Of a stretch of DNA of 64,000 nt, positions 1,792 to 57,875 are shown one piece after another. The notes beneath the pieces are model-generated. The model was not told where the DNA came from, did no database searches, and saw only the letters and a program-made list of their open reading frames with translations. Position 1 is the stretch's first letter; each line of letters starts with the position of its first letter. Both the position numbers and the translations under genes were made by a program. This DNA comes from a virus (Duplodnaviria > Heunggongvirae > Uroviricota > Caudoviricetes), in the IMG/VR virus record IMGVR_UViG_2541047850_000005, positions 3,554 to 67,553 of that record. The stretch is one strand, 5' to 3'.

Positions 1792-1812
1792 AAATAACAA
1801 ATTGTTTTCTTG
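1792..1812 (-). promoter_or_regulatory. motif-1 palindromic operator/promoter element (AAAACAAsTTGTTTT family)
   Basis: aaataacaaattgttttcttg immediately upstream of the 1292..1774 start; one of at least 13 copies in the window. Confidence 0.45.
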
Positions 1813-2124
1813 TTGGCGTTAATTATCGTTGTACGAATAAGGCATCAAAGTGGAAAGTTGCGGTAGCCGGACGGGAACAGGTGGGTTTGTCGGTTGCCTG
1901 GAGGTAAGAGGTTGGTGTTTTTAGCCTGCGGGAAACAGGATGGTCATTTAAGGCCACCAGCAGTGGTGGCCTTAATAATTATCGACCGATTACGCTAAGG
2001 ATCTTTTCCTCAACTGATTTGTTGTTGCGACTAAACTGCCTTGCGTATCTGATGACAGAAGAGGCGTTTTGCTTTCTGACTATCTCGGCTCTTTCCTTCA
2101 GGCGTTTCTTGAAATCGCCCATAT

Positions 2125-2499
2125 TTACCACCAGGCGCAGAAGGTCAGTCTGTTATTGTGAAAGTCGTGGTTCTTAATCAGCTCTTCCACAAGTTTTTTC
2201 AACTCCCCCACGTCATGCCAGTACCCTTCATCGTACTCCTGACTGCCGAAGAAAAAACCTTCACAGGTAGGTAAGTACTCTTCGCAGTTACTTTCGTTCA
2301 TGTGCATCAAATGAGCTTTCAGAGCACAAATGTCATTCATCGTTAATTCTAAAAGCTCACAATTTTTGACTTCACCTACGTTGCGTTCCATCCACCCAAA
2401 GAGAGCATTGAACTTACGGAAGTAAGCAACCTTCTTTCTGGATGCATCGTTATTCAGATCGTTTTTTGGTTGCGTCTCAATGTAGATATCAAGTCCCAT
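2125..2499 (-). CDS. hypothetical protein (124 aa)
   Basis: ORF track; motif-1 copy at 2556-2574 upstream; hairpin GGCCACCAGCAGTGGTGGCC at 1961-1980 after the stop. Confidence 0.5.
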   Translation of the reverse strand: MGLDIYIETQPKNDLNNDASRKKVAYFRKFNALFGWMERNVGEVKNCELLELTMNDICALKAHLMHMNESNCEEYLPTCEGFFFGSQEYDEGYWHDVGELKKLVEELIKNHDFHNNRLTFCAWW

Positions 2500-2617
2500 G
2501 ATGGTTTCCTTATCAAGTTGCTTTCAGTGAAAGCATTTTCACAAATCAGATAAGGCAGAAAACAAATTGTTATCGGGCATAAGAAAATGGCGCGGTTTAC
2601 GCGCCATTCAAAGAGGA

Positions 2618-3025
2618 TTAAGCGAATACGCTTTCAGGGATTAAGGTGTCAGCAGGAATGCCGGAGGTAATGCGCAGACCATACTGACCAATCCAGGTAG
2701 TGTTAGTGTTCAGACTGGAAGCGAATACGGTGTTAACCATATTCATCATGGTTTCAAACACCTCTTTATTCACCTTACGGAAGTAACTTTCAATTTTCAA
2801 CAACAACGGGTCCGTTGCATCAAAAATGGACTGATATTGCGCCTCATATTCCCCGCCTGATGTATCTCCTTTACGCACAATAGTACTTGCCTGAACTTCA
2901 GTTCCAGTTTCGGTGTTGTACGTAACGACGGTGATTTTAGCTACATTCTTACCTTCGGCGCTTTCTGAAGCATAGTAGACATCAACTGTCAGGTTTTCTC
3001 GTTTAACGCTCATATCACTCTCCAT
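2618..3025 (-). CDS. hypothetical protein (about 131-135 aa)
   Basis: ORF track; likely true start a few codons inside (MSVKREN…). Confidence 0.45.
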   Translation of the reverse strand: MESDMSVKRENLTVDVYYASESAEGKNVAKITVVTYNTETGTEVQASTIVRKGDTSGGEYEAQYQSIFDATDPLLLKIESYFRKVNKEVFETMMNMVNTVFASSLNTNTTWIGQYGLRITSGIPADTLIPESVFA

Positions 3026-3139
3026 AGTGTCTTGGTTATTTTTCTATTTTATAGACATAGGTATGTACTTACAATACAAAAAAAACCCGTAAGGATGGCG
3101 GGGCTGTCGTACTGTCGACTAATTACCACTTGCACATTA

Positions 3140-3451
3140 TCAGGCTATTGCCATCACTGATGCTCTCTGAATCTCTTGCTGGGCCACGCGGTTAACTTCC
3201 ATCAAAGCCAGTTCGAGCTGATGTTCCGGCCACATTCTTTGAAATGCCATCCAGCCTTTTCCACGCTGGCGACGAACATTCATTACATAACGAGTAAAGG
3301 TGTTTTTATCGAAAGACACCGCTGTTTCACGGAACAGACGAATAGAGGTTCCATTGGCAACGATGTCCAGCAAAGTTAATTGAGCAACCAGCGCAGGCTT
3401 CTCTTTTCTCTTCTGGTCTTTGTCCAGACCAAGAACCAATGATTTTTTCAT
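3140..3451 (-). CDS. hypothetical protein (about 104 aa)
   Basis: ORF 3140..3481 trimmed to the ATG at 3451 (MKKSLVLG…) that follows a GGAG SD and lies downstream of motif-1 copy 3461-3479. Confidence 0.45.
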   Translation of the reverse strand: MKKSLVLGLDKDQKRKEKPALVAQLTLLDIVANGTSIRLFRETAVSFDKNTFTRYVMNVRRQRGKGWMAFQRMWPEHQLELALMEVNRVAQQEIQRASVMAIA

Positions 3452-3604
3452 CACAACTCCGTAAACAACTTGTTTTCTCAATGTCGTAAATAATACCAGT
3501 AAGAAAACGGCTACAAAGCATATTGATCAGGTGCATGAGCGATATGCAGGTTCTTCCCTGCGGCTATAGAGAAATTAAGCCAGCAATGCTGGCTTTGGTT
3601 GGGA

Positions 3605-3934
3605 TTACGCGAATACCTCAAGAAACTCCTGAACGTCCCAATGCTGGACGAGGTGAAGATAGACCTTAGAAATCACGTCATTTTCACTATCGCATGTGAA
3701 GTAGTACTTCTGGCTGCGGTTGTATGTGTCCACACAAAATTCGCTCATATCCATAAAGTCAGCATCTTCACCCATGTCGCAAATCATCAAAGCAGGTGCG
3801 TCATCACGAGTCATCAGCTCCAGCACCCATATTGAATTAATCAGAGTGGAAGACCAACCTTCCAGCTCATAAAACTGGTCAAACTCTTTTTGAGTCAATT
3901 TCTTAATTTGGTTGATGTCGATATTTGCAAACAT
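3605..3934 (-). CDS. hypothetical protein (about 109 aa)
   Basis: ORF 3605..4000 trimmed to ATG at 3934 (MFANIDINQ…) preceded by AAGGA; motif-1 variant at 3945-3962. Confidence 0.4.
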   Translation of the reverse strand: MFANIDINQIKKLTQKEFDQFYELEGWSSTLINSIWVLELMTRDDAPALMICDMGEDADFMDMSEFCVDTYNRSQKYYFTCDSENDVISKVYLHLVQHWDVQEFLEVFA

Positions 3935-4039
3935 AAAGCAATCCTTAAACATGTTGTTTTCTGAATTACGTAAACAATACCAGTAAGAAAACGGCCACAA
4001 AGTATATCGTTACGGTGCTGCGCTGCCCCGGAGGTTAAT

Positions 4040-4066
4040 AGCGACAAAAGCCACCGTGCTGGTGGC
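4040..4066 (-). terminator. rho-independent terminator-like hairpin
   Basis: Minus-strand GGCCACCAGCACGGTGGC followed by CTTTTGT, directly after the 4074..4292 stop. Confidence 0.5.
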
Positions 4067-4073
4067 CTCACTC

Positions 4074-4292
4074 TTAATCTTGGTCGTCCGGGAACTCGCT
4101 GTGTACCGCGCCAACCAGCTCCCGCTTTTCATCTTCACTCAGCAGGTGCCAGATATCCTTCCCTTTGGGCGATTCCCCTTCTGCCGGGACGAACGACCAC
4201 AACTTGCGGTACAACTCCGGCCCCACTGCATCCAGACACTCAGCCAGGGAATCCACGCCCCACACCTCAACCGTCACAGGCATCTTAATCAT
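4074..4292 (-). CDS. hypothetical small protein (72 aa)
   Basis: ORF track; terminator-like hairpin GCCACCGTGCTGGTGGCC at 4049-4066 just after the stop. Confidence 0.4.
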   Translation of the reverse strand: MIKMPVTVEVWGVDSLAECLDAVGPELYRKLWSFVPAEGESPKGKDIWHLLSEDEKRELVGAVHSEFPDDQD

Positions 4293-4879
4293 CTCTTCAT
4301 CCTCACTTCGTTTCTATAACGTCTAAATATGCTGTTTACTTGTTGGTGTTATTATCGCAATAAGACAAAGGCGAAAAAGGATTTTATGTCGGGAAAGCCA
4401 GGCTGGGCAGTGAATATCCGGGAACGACACGAGAGCCAGTATTTACGATATTCTGCTCTACGCACGCCGCGGGGCTGGTGGGCAGAATAATCCTCTCCCC
4501 GAAAACCTACTGAAATCGATTGTGACCCGCTGGCTGTCTGGCACAATTACGCTGTATCTGGCATTCAGAGGGAATCCAGCGGTAAGCAAGTCAGCCTGCA
4601 CGTGAGCGTCTCTCTTCTTCCCGCACATTACAGGTGGGTAGCTGCAACTCTCTCTCGCTATACCGGTACGCCGCCGTTCCTGAACCGGCATCGAGCCTTT
4701 TCCCGAAATCCACACAGGCAACTCGACCGTTTCCCTGAAAATCCCCAGCCGTTTCTGTAGCGTATGCAACCTTTTCTCTGTATGGACCGAAGGCTGACCG
4801 TAGGGGTGTTACGGGGGATGATGGTAAGATGTTGAATAAATACGAAAAAGGAGGCGACACCCCTCCTTCCCTCCCCACT

Positions 4880-5660
4880 TATACATACCTTGCTTCTTCG
4901 CTATACATGTTGTGTTTTCTTCGTGTTTTATCTGTCTCAACCTCTCTATAGGCGTTAATGCTTACTCCTTCCAGAACGTTCTATACGGCGACTATTTCTG
5001 TTGGTGAATTGGGTGTGTTGTTTTCTCTGTCGATGTATGTGGTTTCGTTCGTTTTGCGGTGGTTCTTCTATGGGGTGTTCTCGTCGTTTTGGTGATTGTT
5101 CTTCTCCGTGTATGGAGTAATGGCAGGTGGGCGATTCCTTTCGTTATTGTGTTTGAGTTGTTTGTCTGGAGTGTGTGAAGGGCTTTTGTAGTTATTCGTG
5201 TATTGGGTAATGGCGTTTCCCGTGATTGTTATGTTTCGTGTCTTTTGGGATTGAGAGAAACCTTGCGGTTACAGGCTTCGTTGGGGTTTCAGCGGTTCAG
5301 GTGTTTCTTCGCTGTTTGGGTAATGGCGTGTCGTGGGTATCGCGCGTATGAATGTTTTCGGATTGCCTGTGAAAGTTAGGTTGGTTATCCGGTAGCCTGG
5401 GAAGAAGAGGTGGGGTCTTTTCGGTAGCCTGCCATAAAGAGGTTGGTTGTTTTGGGTAATGGCATATGTGTTATTTGGTTGTTTTGTTATGCCTGAAAAT
5501 AAGTTGTTTATATGGTTGTGTAACGCAACGGGAGCGATTTTGAGCGTGTGTTTTTGTTGGTAGTGTGTTGAGTCGTCTGTGGTGAAAATTGGACGCTGTG
5601 GAGCTGTCTGCTGCGTAGGTTTACGGGTATAAGAAGTGATGTGTGAAAACGTCAATTTTT
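4880..5660. repeat. strand-asymmetric GT-rich repeat block (no credible ORF)
   Basis: Plus strand is almost only G and T over about 800 bp; at least 4 copies of GGGTAATGGC plus one GGAGTAATGGC, and repeated CGGTAGCCTG; ORFs called here are low-complexity. Confidence 0.5.
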
Positions 5661-5861
5661 TAGACCAAATCGGGAGAAAGCGTTGATGTTTCGTTGATCT
5701 GTTATTTAGTTGTTTTCTTATTGGTATAAACAACTGTAACCTATTGATATTTAAGGATGTGATTGCAGGCATGGAAGGGGAGTAGTGGCGATCAACGGAT
5801 TCTTATAGAAAAGAATCAAATTGTGACCGCCATTATCAACGGTTTGAATATGTTTGCAGAT

Positions 5862-6170
5862 TTACCAGTTCCAGCACTCAAGCCCTTCAACGACCGGCGC
5901 ACCACAATCAAAATGTACAGAGTCAAAGCCTACATCAAGTACTTTCTGAATGTTAGCAATCGCGCCTTCGGATATACCATATCGACGCAAGTCGTCTTTC
6001 CAGACATCATCCTGTAACCCGGCGTGGACAATACAACCGCCATCAATTTGTGAAACCCAATCCAGCTCATTGCTTGCGATCATGAATCGGCGAGCATCTT
6101 CCTCTGATGTATGAGATGAACTGATCAATGCCACCTGGTAGGCTTGGGTAATGTTCAACATTTCAACCAC
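5862..6170 (-). CDS. hypothetical protein (102 aa)
   Basis: ORF track; two motif-1 copies upstream at 6172-6194 and 6221-6240. Confidence 0.45.
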   Translation of the reverse strand: MVEMLNITQAYQVALISSSHTSEEDARRFMIASNELDWVSQIDGGCIVHAGLQDDVWKDDLRRYGISEGAIANIQKVLDVGFDSVHFDCGAPVVEGLECWNW

Positions 6171-6322
6171 TCCAAAACAAGTTGTTTTCTTATGTGGCTT
6201 ATTATCTCTAACAACAAAAGGCAGAAAACAAATTGTTTTAGGTACTGTGTAAATCAGAAGGGATTGTGTCTATATGAAAATGCCCGGCGTGTTGCCGGGC
6301 ATTGCGAAGAGAGGTTGCTTAA

Positions 6323-8356
6323 TTACTTAACCTGGTGACCAGGTTTAGCACCAGCATCCGGGCTTAACAGGAAGATATCTTTCCCACCAGGACCAGCAGC
6401 CATCACCATGCCTTCTGAGATACCGAAACGCATTTTACGCGGAGCCAGGTTAGCCACCATAATGGTGTGACGACCAATCAGTGCCTGTGGGTCTGGATAA
6501 GCAGAACGAATGCCGGAGAAGACATTACGCTTTTCCCCACCGAGATCCAGTGTCAGACGCAGCAGTTTGTCAGAGCCTTCAACAAACTCCGCGTTTTCAA
6601 TCAGCGCCACACGCAGGTCAACTTTGGCGAAGTCGTCAAAGGTGATGGTTTCCTGAATCGGGTCGTCAGCCAGTGGGCCAGTTACCGGTGCGGCTGTGGC
6701 TTTCACTTCTTCTTTGGATGCTTCCACCAGTGCTTCCACCTGTTTCATATCGATGCGGTTATACAGCGCCTTGAACGGATTCACTTTGTGGCCCAGCAGC
6801 GGTTGCTGGATACCATCCCAGGTCAGTTCTGTATTGAGGAATGCTTCTGCGCGCTCGGTCAGTTTCGGCAGTACCGGTTTCAGGTAAGTCATCAGCACGC
6901 GGAACAGGTTAATGCCCATAGAGCAAATCGCCTGCAGATCGGCATCGCGACCTTCCTGCTTCGCCACCACCCACGGAGCCTGTTCATCGACATAGCGGTT
7001 AGCCAGGTCAGCCAGTGCCATGATTTCACGGATAGCTTTACCAAATTCGCGGCTTTCCCATGCTTCGCCAATCACTTCAGCGGCATCAGTAAAGGTTTTG
7101 TACAGTTGCGGGTCAGCCAGTTCGCTTGCCAGCACGCCGTCAAAACGCTTGTTGATAAAGCCTGCATTACGGGAGGCCAGGTTAACCACTTTGTTCACGA
7201 TATCGGCATTCACTCGCTGAACGAAATCTTCCAGGTTGAGATCGATATCATCAATGCGCGAAGAGAGTTTCGCAGTGTAGTAGTAACGCAGGCTGTCGGC
7301 GTCAAAATGATTCAGCCAGGTGCTGGCTTTAATGAACGTGCCGCGAGACTTGGACATCTTCGCACCGTTCACCGTCACATAGCCATGAACAAACAGGTTG
7401 GTCGGCTTGCGGAAGTTGCTGCCTTCCAGCATGGCAGGCCAGAACAGGCTGTGGAAGTAAACGATATCTTTACCGATGAAGTGGTACAGCTCGGCGGTGG
7501 AGTCTTTCTTCCAGTATTCATCGAAGCTGGAGGTGTCGCCGCGTTTGTCGCACAGATTCTTGAAGGAACCCATGTAGCCAATCGGCGCGTCCAGCCAGAC
7601 GTAGAAATATTTGCCCGGCGCGTTCGGAATTTCAAAACCGAAATAAGGGGCGTCGCGGGAGATATCCCACTGTTGCAGGCCAGATTCAAACCACTCCTGC
7701 ATTTTATTTGCCACCTGCTCCTGCAACGCACCGCTGCGGGTCCATGCCTGCAGCATTTCGCTGAAAGAAGGCAGATCAAAGAAGAAGTGTTCGGAATCAC
7801 GCATTACCGGCGTAGCACCAGAAACTACCGATTTCGGCTCGATCAGTTCAGTCGGGCTGTAAGTCGCGCCGCAGACTTCACAGTTATCGCCGTATTGATC
7901 TGGCGCTTTACATTTAGGGCAGGTGCCTTTTACAAAACGGTCCGGCAGGAACATGCCTTTTTCCGGGTCGTATAACTGAGAGATGGTGCGGTTTTTAATA
8001 AAACCGTTCTCTTTCAGGCGAGTATAAATAAGCTCGGACAACTGACGGTTCTCTTCGCTGTGCGTCGAGTGATAGTTGTCATAGCTGATGTTAAAGCCTG
8101 CAAAATCAGTCTGGTGTTCCTGACTCATTTCGCCAATCATCTGTTCCGGTGTGATACCAAGCTGCTGTGCTTTCAGCATGATCGGTGTGCCGTGGGCATC
8201 GTCGGCACAGATGAAATTAACCTCGTGGCCGCGCATTCGCTGGTAACGAACCCAGACATCAGCCTGGATGTGCTCCAGCATATGGCCGAGGTGGATTGAG
8301 CCGTTAGCGTACGGCAGCGCGCACGTCACCAGAATTTTCTTCGCGACTTGGGTCAT
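6323..8356 (-). CDS. metG: methionine--tRNA ligase (MetG), E. coli-type
   Basis: 677 aa from [41 protein letters not shown]…; class I aaRS HIGH/KMSKS (KMSKS present), C-terminal tRNA-binding domain; from memory near-identical to E. coli MetG. The ORF track's 43-residue N-terminal extension (to 8485) is rejected. Confidence 0.95.
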
Positions 8357-8513
8357 AGTAGGCATTACTTCTTTGTAGTGAAAAGGGGCTTGATAGTAAC
8401 AAAATGGCCTTATGTCTGCCATGTGATAACAGCATTTCTCATAAATGATTAAATGCCGTAGCTGGAGTACACTACAAGGCGACAATTGCGCAAATTAAAA
8501 TAAAGGAGACGGG

Positions 8514-9614
8514 ATGAGCGAGTCCAAATCGCCGGATGCCCTGAGAGCAATGGTAGCCGGTACGCTGGCTAATTTTCAGCACCCAACCCTGAAACACAAC
8601 CTGACTACGCTTAAAGCGTTACACCATGTTGCGTTGATGGATGACACACTGCATGTCGAACTAATCATGCCTTTCGTGTGGAATAAGCCTTTTGAAGACC
8701 TGAAAGAGCAATGTAGTGGTGATCTGCTCCGTATCACTGGCGCAAAGGCTATCGACTGGAAGCTGTCGTACAACATTGCCACGCTTAAGCGCGTCAAAAA
8801 CCAACCAGGCATTAATGGCGTTAAGAACATTATCGCCGTCAGCTCAGGCAAGGGCGGCGTTGGTAAATCCTCCACGGCGGTAAACCTGGCACTGGCGTTG
8901 GCTGCTGAAGGTGCGAAAGTTGGTATTTTGGATGCCGATATCTACGGGCCATCAATTCCAACCATGCTTGGCGCGGAAAACCAACGTCCAACCTCACCGG
9001 ACGGTACTCACATGGCACCGATTATGTCTCATGGACTGGCAACCAATTCAATTGGTTATCTGGTAACTGACGACAATGCGATGGTGTGGCGTGGTCCGAT
9101 GGCGAGCAAGGCGTTAATGCAGATGTTGCAGGAAACTCTATGGCCTGATCTGGACTATCTCGTTCTCGATATGCCGCCGGGTACTGGTGATATTCAGCTG
9201 ACGCTGGCGCAGAACATTCCTGTAACTGGTGCTGTTGTGGTAACTACGCCGCAAGATATCGCGCTGATCGATGCGAAGAAAGGCATTGTGATGTTCGAAA
9301 AAGTCGAAGTGCCGGTACTGGGTATCGTCGAAAACATGAGTGTGCATATTTGCAGTAACTGCGGTCATCACGAGCCAATTTTTGGCACCGGTGGCGCACA
9401 GAAACTGGCCGAGAAATACAACACGCAGTTGTTAGGCCAAATGCCACTTCATATCTCTCTTCGTGAAGATCTGGATAACGGAACACCAACCGTTATTAGT
9501 CGTCCAGATAGCGAATTTACGGCTATTTATCGTGACCTTGCAGATCGCGTTGCTGCCCAAATGTATTGGCAAGGTGAAGTAATACCTGGCGAAATCGCAT
9601 TCCGCGCAGTGTGA
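8514..9614 (+). CDS. apbC: Fe-S cluster carrier ATPase ApbC/Mrp
   Basis: 366 aa with Walker A SSGKGGVGKSSTAVNLA and CxxC (CSNCGHH) motif; divergent from metG as in the E. coli chromosome. Confidence 0.93.
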   Translation: MSESKSPDALRAMVAGTLANFQHPTLKHNLTTLKALHHVALMDDTLHVELIMPFVWNKPFEDLKEQCSGDLLRITGAKAIDWKLSYNIATLKRVKNQPGINGVKNIIAVSSGKGGVGKSSTAVNLALALAAEGAKVGILDADIYGPSIPTMLGAENQRPTSPDGTHMAPIMSHGLATNSIGYLVTDDNAMVWRGPMASKALMQMLQETLWPDLDYLVLDMPPGTGDIQLTLAQNIPVTGAVVVTTPQDIALIDAKKGIVMFEKVEVPVLGIVENMSVHICSNCGHHEPIFGTGGAQKLAEKYNTQLLGQMPLHISLREDLDNGTPTVISRPDSEFTAIYRDLADRVAAQMYWQGEVIPGEIAFRAV

Positions 9615-9651
9615 TAAAAAGGTGGTGCAATGCACCACCTAAACAGTTCTC

Positions 9652-10041
9652 CTACATCACAGGACAATCATCAAACTCGCCACTTCTTGCGTCGTTGATA
9701 ATGTGAGTGATCACACCAAACACGGCATTGCTGCCCGTGCATCCATCATCATCCTTTGGCAATGCTTCCTTCTTACCAGTTCTTAAATCCTCCAGATGCT
9801 GACGTGGATACTTCCGGTATCTTTTTACGCGATATTCCCCATCCAGAGCACATACAAGAAGAGATCCATCAACAGGAGTGAGTGAGGAATCGACCACCAG
9901 CAATGCACCCTGCAATATTCCCTCACGATGATGGCTATCAGCTGCCCTCAAGAAGTAGGTCGCTGAAGGATGTCTAATTATCTGCTGATCAAGAGAAATA
10001 CGGCTCTCAGCATAATCCGCCGCAGGAGAGGGGTACCCCAT
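9652..10041 (-). CDS. UmuD'-like S24 peptidase domain protein (N-terminally pre-truncated)
   Basis: MGYPSPAADYAESRISLDQQIIRHPSATYF… aligns with E. coli UmuD from Gly25 onward ([29 protein letters not shown]); Ser (DSH) and Lys (RVKR) of the catalytic dyad retained; in-frame stop 3 codons upstream of the ATG. Confidence 0.7.
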   Translation of the reverse strand: MGYPSPAADYAESRISLDQQIIRHPSATYFLRAADSHHREGILQGALLVVDSSLTPVDGSLLVCALDGEYRVKRYRKYPRQHLEDLRTGKKEALPKDDDGCTGSNAVFGVITHIINDARSGEFDDCPVM

Positions 10042-10059: not shown

Positions 10060-10079
10060 TACTGTTTATCTGTACAGTA
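10060..10079 (-). promoter_or_regulatory. LexA (SOS) box
   Basis: TACTGTTTATCTGTACAGTA = CTGT-N8-ACAG, 19-38 bp upstream of the UmuD'-like start. Confidence 0.65.
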
Positions 10080-10198
10080 TACATTAAAGAAGCACCTTTG
10101 GTGCATTAGAGAAATGCAAAACGATAATAGAGGCTAAATCGAGGTAGAAAACACATTGTTTAAGGCCACTAATTGTGGCCTTAATGGAGAGGGGATGC

Positions 10199-56390: not shown

Positions 56391-56777
56391 ATGTCTGACA
56401 AAAACATTGAATTTATAGAAAGTCGCTATGCTGCTTTTATCGCAGGGCTGATTGAATCCTCACCTATGAGTCAGGCCCAAATAGCCAGACTTATTGGTTA
56501 TAAAAATGCCAACAACCTTTCTTTAATTAAAAGTGGTAAAATTCCTTTGCCTATCGATAAGGTTCGTCCGCTGGCGTTGGCGCTGGGTATTGAGCCAAGT
56601 CGTCTTATGATGATGGTGCTGGAAGAACGCCAACCTGAACTCGCAGCATTTTTATACAAAGAAGGCACCGCTCCTCTTAACGAGGACGAAAAACAGGTTC
56701 TTGCTGCATATAACGAGCGATTCGGTAAAGAGAAAGGCGCATCACAAAAGGTTGTTGAGGCCATAAAGTCTCTATGA
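56391..56777 (+). CDS. XRE-family helix-turn-helix transcriptional regulator
   Basis: …SQAQIARLIGYKNANNLSLIKSGK… HTH signature; 128 aa; convergent with the recombinase gene. Confidence 0.65.
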   Translation: MSDKNIEFIESRYAAFIAGLIESSPMSQAQIARLIGYKNANNLSLIKSGKIPLPIDKVRPLALALGIEPSRLMMMVLEERQPELAAFLYKEGTAPLNEDEKQVLAAYNERFGKEKGASQKVVEAIKSL

Positions 56778-57875
56778 AAAATTTAGACGAATAAGCTCTG
56801 TTGATAGACGATCTCCCTTGAATTTGTGGTCAATTTCGTCTAAATCCGGTTGCTCTACGATTGATGCGATGTACGTTGAGAAACTTTCTAAGGCGTCTCG
56901 CATCTCGTCCATATAATCGTGCCGGTCGTAGACCCGATCTATCCCCTCAAGACTGTGGTTCATGATTTTGCGTGATACCTCCTGGCTTATGCCTAATGCT
57001 GGGAAGTAACTACGCGCAGTACGACGCAAATCTCGGGGTGTAAATGGCGCAAGCTCCATCAGTTCTGGTCGTTCCAGAATACGACGTAATGCCTGGGCTA
57101 TTGCCACTTTAGACATAGGAAGGTCTTTCCCGATTTTTTTATTCGAAGGCACGAGCCACTGGCTGTCTTTACCGTATTCGAACAACTCTTCAATGCATGT
57201 GCGCATTAATGTGCTTAAAGGCAGCGAATGCTCACGTGCTGACTTGTTTCTCTTGCCTTGATTCCAAACTCCACGCTTAAGATTGAACTCACTTTTTTTA
57301 GCCCTCAGTACTTCGTCAGGTCGTCTTGCTGATACAAGACACAGCCTGGCCGCCCATTTTGTACCAGCGCACACATTGAAGTAGTCCCATATATTCCAGA
57401 ACACCCATACCTCTGCGTCGGTCAGCTTCCGCTCGCGAGGTGTGGGCTTTGCGCCACCGGCAACTTTGTTTAGTGACATATCGTTTAACGGTGACACGTC
57501 TATCATCCCCTGGAAGGCGCACCAGCTAAGGAACTGCTTCATCAGAGAGAAAACGCGGCGGCCCATAACAATTTTGCCATCCAGTATTAGTGGGTTGACC
57601 AGTTGGTTCACCATGAACCTATTAATGTCACTTACTTTTACATCGGCAATGTGCGGCAAAACATGTATCAAAATACAATGAACAGCGATCTCTGGCCGAC
57701 GTCTGGTTATCAGCAGAGATAAGCGAGTGAATAACATGAATGCGTCCGAGAATTTCATATCATTGCTAACCTGCGAGATCATAACGGCCTGCATTTGAGA
57801 TGCTCTTTCGAGATACTCAATCGCCTCTTTTGAGGTGTTCTCAGCAGCGCGTGCTCTGTCAAAGCTATTTTTCAT
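56772..57875 (-). CDS. tyrosine-type site-specific recombinase/integrase
   Basis: 367 aa; candidate catalytic Arg (ARRPDEV), RDLRRTARSYF and HSLEGIDRVYDRHDY fit the R…H-x-x-R…Y pattern. Confidence 0.75.
   Translation of the reverse strand: MKNSFDRARAAENTSKEAIEYLERASQMQAVMISQVSNDMKFSDAFMLFTRLSLLITRRRPEIAVHCILIHVLPHIADVKVSDINRFMVNQLVNPLILDGKIVMGRRVFSLMKQFLSWCAFQGMIDVSPLNDMSLNKVAGGAKPTPRERKLTDAEVWVFWNIWDYFNVCAGTKWAARLCLVSARRPDEVLRAKKSEFNLKRGVWNQGKRNKSAREHSLPLSTLMRTCIEELFEYGKDSQWLVPSNKKIGKDLPMSKVAIAQALRRILERPELMELAPFTPRDLRRTARSYFPALGISQEVSRKIMNHSLEGIDRVYDRHDYMDEMRDALESFSTYIASIVEQPDLDEIDHKFKGDRLSTELIRLNFS

Follow-up and report, generated by a model that had tools for sequence, protein, structure and literature searches.

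The question raised by this locus is why two bacterial housekeeping genes should sit in the middle of a phage-like element. The stretch of DNA that we analysed (the window) comprises 64,000 nucleotides, positions 3,554 to 67,553 of the IMG/VR virus record IMGVR_UViG_2541047850_000005 (Caudoviricetes), and between 6.3 and 9.6 kb it holds metG, the gene for methionyl-tRNA synthetase (MetRS), and the divergently oriented apbC (mrp), the gene for an iron-sulfur (Fe-S) cluster carrier. A preliminary description, made from the sequence alone, had regarded this block as E. coli-type and left a choice between a captured host segment, a rearrangement and an assembly chimera. In the end, we concluded that the cassette is real, recurrent, old, selectively maintained and host-derived, and that it resides in a well-known kind of element. 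The reading that we favour, and consider probable, is that of a chromosomal metG-apbC cassette captured long ago, which is now a near-core accessory 'moron' of an Escherichia-associated lineage of SSU5-like phage-plasmids.

Both genes are present as described, and both are intact. The metG gene (6323-8356, minus strand) encodes a methionine--tRNA ligase of 677 aa that scores 1019.6 bits (cut-off 587) against the NCBIfam equivalog model NF001100, residues 4-677 matching positions 3-676 of the 676 in the model. It retains the HLGH (22-25) and KMSKS (333-337) motifs, the zinc knuckle CPKC...CEVC at 146-162 (C146-C162) and W462 (in PWVVAK), as well as the Pfam domains Anticodon_3 and, at the C-terminus, tRNA_bind. 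Across a spacer of 157 bp (8357-8513), which we regard as the divergent promoter region, lies apbC (8514-9614, plus strand), encoding a P-loop ATPase of 366 aa that scores 759.3 bits (cut-off 348) against the NCBIfam equivalog NF008669 (residues 2-366, model positions 5-369 of 369), with the deviant Walker A motif GKGGVGKS at 112-119 and a CxxC motif, CSNC, at 280-283. Every signature motif is thus preserved in both proteins, and the low ratio of nonsynonymous to synonymous divergence (dN/dS; see below) is indirect support that MetG would charge tRNA-Met. A comparison of G+C content (GC), one of the checks proposed in the preliminary description, sets the block (0.509) apart from its flanks (0.443 and 0.457).

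The element itself is an SSU5-like phage-plasmid, as follows from its near-identity to phage isolates and from the plasmid and siphovirus gene sets of a relative. Over the 6 kb around the block, the part that was compared, the window is 98.9% identical to phage PhiR41_1, 98.6% identical to a 109-kb plasmid of E. albertii and 95.8-96.9% identical to phages CMS-2020a and Cyrano. In p009_B, an annotated relative of 110 kb, plasmid and replication genes (RepB, ParB-like genes, DnaE, RecA, NrdAB, ThyA, a tRNA cluster and an integrase) stand together with a complete siphovirus module, with portal, terminase and tail genes among the structural genes; it is from this relative that the structural genes, which lie outside the window, are known. 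The backbone gene dnaE was detected in 244 of 5,426 complete E. coli genomes, at 250 places on plasmids and at none on chromosomes, which argues against the possibility, raised in the preliminary description, that the genes to the left of the block are themselves chromosomal.

The block recurs with the same junctions in collections of very different kinds. The 6-kb region that includes it is found in 194 of the 5,426 complete E. coli genomes; about 190 plasmids in PLSDB, roughly 110 kb in size, have the block at 94.6-99.1% identity, their hosts being E. coli, E. albertii, E. fergusonii, E. marmotae and Shigella; and it is present in four phage records (PhiR41_1, Cyrano and two records of CMS-2020a) and in at least 10 metagenome contigs of about 108-112 kb. 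In the E. coli genome set, the element-type metG is on 208 plasmid records, compared with 244 genomes with the backbone dnaE, a carriage of about 85% when the denominator is the backbones detectable by megablast. Among the approximately 44 phage-plasmid rows listed, two are without a metG annotation and show no obvious cause such as a record boundary. Because identical junctions recur in independent records, both the chimera and the rearrangement are rejected; the captured segment stands, as an old and lineage-fixed one.

The block occupies a variable cargo slot. On the left, the slot is bounded by the promoter, under operator control, of a backbone gene that reads leftward; on the right, by the stop codon of a lone humD gene with a LexA box. 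In pTB212, a related plasmid without the block, homology to the window stops at 6238 and restarts exactly at 9652, the interval being filled by a gene for a 247-aa DUF4145 protein, which has a weak PADLOC match to the PD-T7-4 defence model (E 3.2e-5). Deacetylase and GNAT genes are further cargo at the same slot in relatives. Since different genes lie between the same edges, we regard the slot as a site of variable cargo. Homology to the K-12 chromosome is limited to 6322-9610, from stop codon to stop codon, and the downstream sequences, terminators included, are unrelated. The palindromic motif AAACANNTTGTTT, described at the outset as an operator found on both sides of the block, has 14 sites in the window (28 strand matches against 3.1 expected; none of 100 shuffles reaches 28). 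These sites run from 1795 to 6238 and begin again at 10149; the motif scan of the window places none between 6239 and 10148, a range that includes the metG-apbC spacer. An extended operator of 24 nt, AGGyAGAAAACAnATTGTTTnAGG, forms a direct repeat at 6219-6242 and 10142-10165 that encloses the block and humD. Inspection of the flanks for repeats and insertion sequence (IS) elements gave no IS element, no terminal inverted repeat and no transposon ends, so the preliminary description was right that no IS flanks the block and overlooked this operator repeat, the sole flanking one. We suggest that the operator repeats may have mediated the exchange of cassettes.

Two further occupants of this region were observed in relatives. 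In p009_B (NZ_CP048306.1), an extra gene for a 231-aa HD_4-domain protein of the small-alarmone-hydrolase type lies between metG and the left backbone gene (locus L091, 2523-3218), and a second HD-domain gene is found further right in the plasmid. In the E. marmotae plasmid NZ_CP072690.1 (locus L085, 6012-7523), and also in NZ_CP146383.1 and NZ_CP148383.1, the gene der for a ribosome-biogenesis GTPase stands to the right of apbC. The captured der is full-length (TIGR03594, 595 bits) and about 90% identical to the chromosomal der of E. coli; its insertion has cut humD to a remnant of 63 aa in the three plasmids.

The two genes of the block are not equally distant from their chromosomal counterparts. 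Compared with K-12, metG is 94.3% identical at the nucleotide level and 98.8% at the amino acid level, with a synonymous divergence (dS) of 0.28, the same value as that between K-12 and Escherichia sp. E1V33 (0.28). For apbC the figures are 82.8% and 94.8%, and the dS of 1.41 may be set against 1.19 between K-12 and Citrobacter, or 1.19-1.36 when Salmonella is included; its identity to Citrobacter is 82.4%, so that Escherichia is no closer than Citrobacter, nor than Salmonella. The proteins had been described as E. coli-like; judged by these distances, the label fits MetG only, and the distance of apbC is that between genera. GC at third codon positions is 0.605 in the element and 0.625 in K-12 for metG, and 0.51 and 0.62 for apbC. 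Identities of metG to the other E. coli chromosomes listed lie between 93.7% and 94.7%, and of the 5,424 chromosomal matches a single one, in isolate BHUCD01, exceeds this range. Over the 80 metagenome loci listed, apbC identities are bimodal (96.5-97.9% in 10 element contigs, 80-83% in 70 chromosomal contigs), with no intermediate allele among them. The apbC of the cassette is thus a discrete, deeply diverged allele class confined to these elements. At seven sites where 13 chromosomal orthologues from many genera do not vary, ApbC carries a fixed substitution in every element copy: Q3E, A4S, W41L, S58K, A59P and A69G in the N-terminal domain, and L350M close to the C-terminus. MetG differs from the K-12 protein at 8 residues, none of them in a known catalytic motif; one difference, S151A, is nearly specific to the elements.

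BHUCD01, a clinical isolate, deserves separate mention (NZ_CM183442.1, 2190170-2200203). At the native locus of a K-12-sized 'chromosome' it shows a metG with 99.7% identity to the phage-plasmid allele, and in its apbC blocks that are 100% element-like alternate with K-12-like blocks. A conversion from element to chromosome was considered and dropped: given this alternation within a record of K-12 size, the likeliest origin of the sequence is an artefact of reference-guided consensus calling in a strain carrying the element.

Most of the spacer, too, fails to align with E. coli. Only about 47 nt beside metG align with Escherichia, and the remainder, specific to the element, aligns best with Citrobacter, at about 77%, so the suggestion of a native divergent promoter region fails for most of its length. 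The simplest reading is that the whole divergent pair was captured long ago, from a lineage near the split of Escherichia and Citrobacter or from an unsampled relative.

The position of metG close to Escherichia may be understood from its recombination. Element copies of metG are 93.0-98.6% identical to one another (dS 0.13-0.33), distances as large as that to K-12. Neighbour-joining trees of the two halves of the gene are discordant, and in the 5' half K-12 nests among the element copies; a PHI-like permutation test (0 of 300 permutations at or below the observed value) and a GENECONV-like test (several significant shared tracts) agree. The element p204A1-109K is identical to K-12 at 27 consecutive polymorphic sites (7429-7634), a run that none of 2000 permutations reaches, and in sliding windows different elements attain 97-100% identity to K-12 in different patches of 120 nt. 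The metG of these elements is therefore a recombination mosaic with at least one tract of E. coli chromosomal type. We suggest that, after capture, metG, the more conserved of the two genes, has been homogenised by gene conversion with Escherichia host copies, an exchange that an identity of about 94% would still permit and that would explain why it stays near Escherichia. At about 83%, apbC would be too diverged to recombine, and would have evolved independently and drifted towards the base composition of the element.

On the element, purifying selection acts strongly on both genes and on the spacer between them. In eight element copies we counted 233 synonymous and 11 nonsynonymous codon states in metG, and 92 and 1 in apbC, with pairwise dN/dS of 0.000-0.021 (metG, 0.002-0.02). 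Plasmids from four Escherichia species are annotated with one and the same ApbC protein, WP_000004356.1. The diversity of the 157-bp spacer is 0.0066 (the E. marmotae copy excluded), compared with 0.11 at third codon positions of metG and 0.07 at those of apbC; this argues for constraint on regulatory sequence as well.

The same figures bear on a neutral explanation, according to which the cassette is a hitch-hiker of no benefit and dN/dS is low either because dominant-negative missense variants are removed in an enzyme that works as a dimer or because the host copy repeatedly repairs the gene by conversion. Such an account can appeal to the C-terminal dimerisation and tRNA-binding domain of MetRS, to the exchange of sequence between metG and other copies, and to those elements that are without the block or have a broken metG. 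However, apbC is too diverged to be repaired from the host copy and yet has the single nonsynonymous state; a non-coding spacer 10-17 times less diverse than third codon positions is not what neutrality predicts; and if the genes were neutral, nulls and deletions should be common, which is at odds with the high retention among backbones and with the two rows, of those listed, that are without metG for no obvious reason. We therefore consider a neutral hitch-hiker unlikely.

The E. albertii plasmid p2014C-4015-1 (NZ_CP034165.1, 63.8 kb) is a degraded derivative of these elements. It is without capsid, tail and terminase genes, its dnaE is interrupted, and it has gained IS110 and IS3 elements, hdeAB and a GNAT/DUF1778 toxin-antitoxin pair. 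It keeps metG and apbC intact, which is weak evidence for a benefit in the plasmid state.

What that benefit might be is less certain. On the metG side of the spacer, the alignment shows an extended -10-like element, TGTTACTAT (minus strand), in common with K-12 (TGGTACTAT). We propose that divergent promoters of host type within the cassette would drive its transcription outside the control of the phage repressor, in line with the lack of operator motifs between 6239 and 10148. A lysogen would in that case hold a second, constitutively expressed MetRS and ApbC, and the extra copies would add to or buffer the charging of Met-tRNA and the delivery of Fe-S clusters in the carrier cell. This capacity or buffering role appears the most plausible function, although our certainty is low; it fits with the other translation cargo of the relatives, namely tRNA genes, the HD_4 small alarmone hydrolase and, occasionally, der. 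The window itself has no tRNA gene among its 64 kb, and so no linked tRNA-Met. In the spacer we also observed a segment at 8404-8425 that reads TTATGTCTGCCATGTGATAACA in the element and in Citrobacter and is absent from K-12 and Salmonella. The E. marmotae copy has TTGCGTCTGCCACGCGATAACA there, with paired changes that would preserve a small hairpin or dyad; the segment may be a regulatory site.

Two more specific roles were considered and dropped. A resistant variant enzyme, in the manner of MupA, is not supported, since MetRS is almost identical to that of the host (98.8% to K-12) and falls under the ordinary metG equivalog of NCBIfam, not the 'exception' model. Nor did we retain the idea that ApbC serves an Fe-S enzyme encoded by the element: p009_B has a class Ia NrdAB, a glutaredoxin and CobT/CobS-like genes, and no evident radical-SAM or Fe-S enzyme.

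A more ambitious version of the buffering role would make the cassette part of a selected, mobile translation-support module, linked to the tRNAs, the alarmone hydrolase and sometimes der, that keeps charged initiator and elongator Met-tRNA available and Fe-S enzymes at work when host or competitor attacks translation, and would make the element a shuttle of alleles between Escherichia species, as metG still recombines with the chromosome. We give this version a small chance of being correct. If it were true, resistance mutations to drugs that target MetRS could in principle travel with the metG of the element.

A related proposal is that of a counter-defence or takeover module, in which the element's own MetRS and ApbC, together with its tRNAs and alarmone hydrolase, would sustain translation when aminoacylation is attacked by systems of the host or of a competitor, or when host gene expression is shut off in lytic growth. 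The setting is suggestive: relatives have a tRNA cluster and HD_4 hydrolase genes, one of them directly beside metG; three elements have captured der beside apbC; the gene in the slot of pTB212 weakly matches a defence model; and the SSU5 hydrolase PaSpo reverses the toxSAS modification of tRNA 3' ends that otherwise blocks aminoacylation (PMC11559606). Against this, MetRS is the target of no known defence system, and a protein nearly identical to that of the host could not evade an inhibitor directed at the protein. PADLOC returned no match for MetG and a generic P-loop match for ApbC, and the retention of both genes by p2014C-4015-1, which is no longer a phage, points to a benefit outside lytic growth. 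A counter-defence role is thus doubtful.

Our preferred reading, an old capture that is now selectively maintained and presumably expressed, has evidence weighing against it too. About 15% of backbones are without the block, and metG is disrupted in a few elements (by a 1-nt insertion at 7179 in L088 and by multiple frameshifts, possibly sequencing errors, in L089), so that the block is dispensable. The signal of purifying selection rests partly on 8-9 sampled copies. The chromosomes of E. albertii, E. fergusonii and E. marmotae were not among the matches listed for the donor comparison, in which the genus was represented by K-12-like chromosomes and Escherichia sp. E1V33 only. The high dS of apbC may be inflated, should replication by the element's own DnaE raise the mutation rate. 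Of the conversion tracts from chromosome to element, a single one is significant by itself once 55 pairs are corrected for. A consensus promoter scan of the spacer gave no sigma-70 site, so it is conservation that points to promoter activity. Finally, a MetRS so close to the host enzyme shows no evidently new activity in quality.

The remaining explanations fare much worse. That the block was picked up recently from a present E. coli host, and is a passenger that has had no time to decay and is under no selection, would suit the near-identity of the MetG protein to that of K-12 and the metG patches of 97-100% identity in some elements; it is highly improbable given that all chromosomal metG matches but the suspect BHUCD01 stop at 94.7%, that apbC is separated from K-12 by a dS of 1.41, that element copies have diverged synonymously from one another with almost no amino acid change, and that the flanks are trimmed to both stop codons. 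We attach even less weight to the idea that the host loses metG, an essential gene, and becomes addicted to the element, or that 2 kb of homology serve as a 'landing pad' for chromosomal integration. At 94% identity over this length RecA can occasionally recombine the two copies, and a conversion tract was seen; however, carriers keep their own copy (5,424 chromosomal metG places among the 5,426 genomes) and integration was not observed, the backbone dnaE having no chromosomal place. An assembly chimera or recent rearrangement, in which chromosomal reads were mis-joined into the element, can be set aside almost completely despite the chromosome-like GC of the block and the probable existence of reference-guided artefacts at this locus (the mosaic of element allele and K-12 in BHUCD01), since the same junctions recur in phages, plasmids, genomes and metagenomes and since, BHUCD01 aside, no E. 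coli chromosome matches the block at more than 94.7% (metG) or about 83% (apbC).

An anciently captured cassette of this kind can be compared with several known systems. Like phage morons, it lies between two backbone transcription units, with its own terminators and putative promoters of its own, it differs from its flanks in base composition, and its slot holds other cargo in relatives. Unlike them, it carries a core housekeeping pair whose proteins are near those of the host, rather than a gene for virulence, exclusion or defence, and it is near-core in its lineage and evidently old. Auxiliary genes of cyanophages such as psbA exchange sequence with the host copy, and metG resembles them: a host-derived gene under purifying selection on the phage, made mosaic by intragenic recombination with phage and host alleles. 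Here, however, the carrier is an enterobacterial temperate phage-plasmid, the gene encodes an aminoacyl-tRNA synthetase, and the partner gene apbC has escaped exchange altogether. Giant viruses and huge phages have aminoacyl-tRNA synthetases that as a rule differ deeply from those of the host and that belong to lytic or giant genomes. The cassette shares with them a complete viral synthetase beside tRNA genes; it differs in the near-identity of its MetRS to the host enzyme, in the 108-kb temperate element that carries it and in having kept the chromosomal neighbour and part of the promoter. The isoleucyl-tRNA synthetases MupA and MupB are likewise mobile extra copies of an essential synthetase, but they are divergent and insensitive, whereas the MetRS of the element is 8 residues away from that of K-12.

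Through the cassette, an essential aminoacyl-tRNA synthetase gene is present in about 4% of complete E. coli genomes as a second copy, which phage can transmit and which selection has long preserved. Hundreds of records annotate the cassette, and no description of it was found in the searchable full-text literature; a targeted reading of two phage-plasmid surveys gave no mention of it. That temperate phages carry host genes is known. What merits experiment here is that metG and apbC have discordant histories, that an essential gene goes on exchanging sequence with the chromosome, and that selection is so strong. The locus is a tractable system in which to ask why core genes of the host are retained, almost unchanged, by temperate elements, and within metG it documents exchange between an essential gene on an element and its chromosomal counterpart. 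Since drugs target MetRS (PMC9769728 lists CRS3123 and REP8839 as inhibitors), a mobile extra copy of the target gene matters for dosage effects and for the spread of resistance alleles. A paralogue on an element can also corrupt core-genome typing and reference-guided assemblies, of which BHUCD01 is a probable example.

The features at the edges of the slot are as follows. The first gene to the left is a backbone gene (5862-6170, minus strand) for a protein of 102 aa with a C-terminal DUF5983 domain (Pfam PF19419, E 7.6e-11), conserved in pTB212. Upstream of it, at 6174-6242, an operator palindrome pair, AAACAAGTTGTTT (6175-6187) and AAACAAATTGTTT (6226-6238), was recognised by motif enrichment and belongs to inverted repeat I3 and direct repeat D5; it marks the left edge of the slot. 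A GC-rich hairpin, ATGCCCGGC-loop-GCCGGGCAT, at 6281-6303 is followed on the minus strand by TTTCAT and is the probable terminator of metG. The consensus terminator scan did not call this hairpin; it is unlike the sequence downstream of metG in K-12, where homology is lost directly after the stop codon.

On the right, a hairpin with a T-run at 9620-9640 (minus strand), 6 nt past the stop codon of apbC and found both by the terminator scan and in the sequence, is the terminator of humD. This gene (9652-10041, minus strand) encodes a UmuD'-like S24 family protein of 129 aa, in keeping with the neighbour that the preliminary description had named, and matches NF051876 over 1-129 of 129 with 215.5 bits (cut-off 120). 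A LexA (SOS) box, TACTGTTTATCTGTACAGTA, lies upstream at 10061-10080, where CTGT-N8-ACAG at 10062 is what we take to be the LexA consensus. A umuC-like partner had been expected at the right junction. We find instead that humD is full-length and has its own LexA box and terminator, and that pTB212 has its DUF4145 gene, not umuC, in that place, so that a missing partner is not supported. In phage P1, humD is a lone gene that works with the UmuC of the host. The gene in the window resembles it in its full-length HumD and LexA box and is about 86% identical at the DNA level to humD of the P1-like phages D6 and RCS47; here it stands in an SSU5-like backbone as a neighbour of the cassette, with no functional tie to it. 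Beyond it, at 10142-10165, is the operator copy AGGTAGAAAACACATTGTTTAAGG, the direct repeat of 6219-6242 (family D5, 88% identity, spacing 3923 nt).

Two regions of the window away from the block are worth recording. A segment of about 800 bp at 4900-5700 is without a long open reading frame, and its plus strand is strongly G+T-rich (G 31%, T 40%). Within it, GG(A)GTAATGGC occurs in four copies, at 5114, 5205, 5318 and 5454. The segment is unannotated in p009_B, and SSU5-like plasmids of Klebsiella, Enterobacter, Salmonella and Citrobacter share it at about 70% identity. No Rfam family reaches its gathering threshold here or anywhere else in the window; the segment could be an origin or iteron region or a non-coding RNA. 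Further right, at 58000-62000, an insert of low GC (about 0.35) contains genes for a PapC-like chaperone-usher fimbrial usher (59247-61727) and an AraC-family regulator (58408-59190). In this neighbourhood p009_B has a Ser/Thr/Tyr/Asn tRNA cluster that the window does not have; the insert adjoins an integrase gene at 56772-57875.

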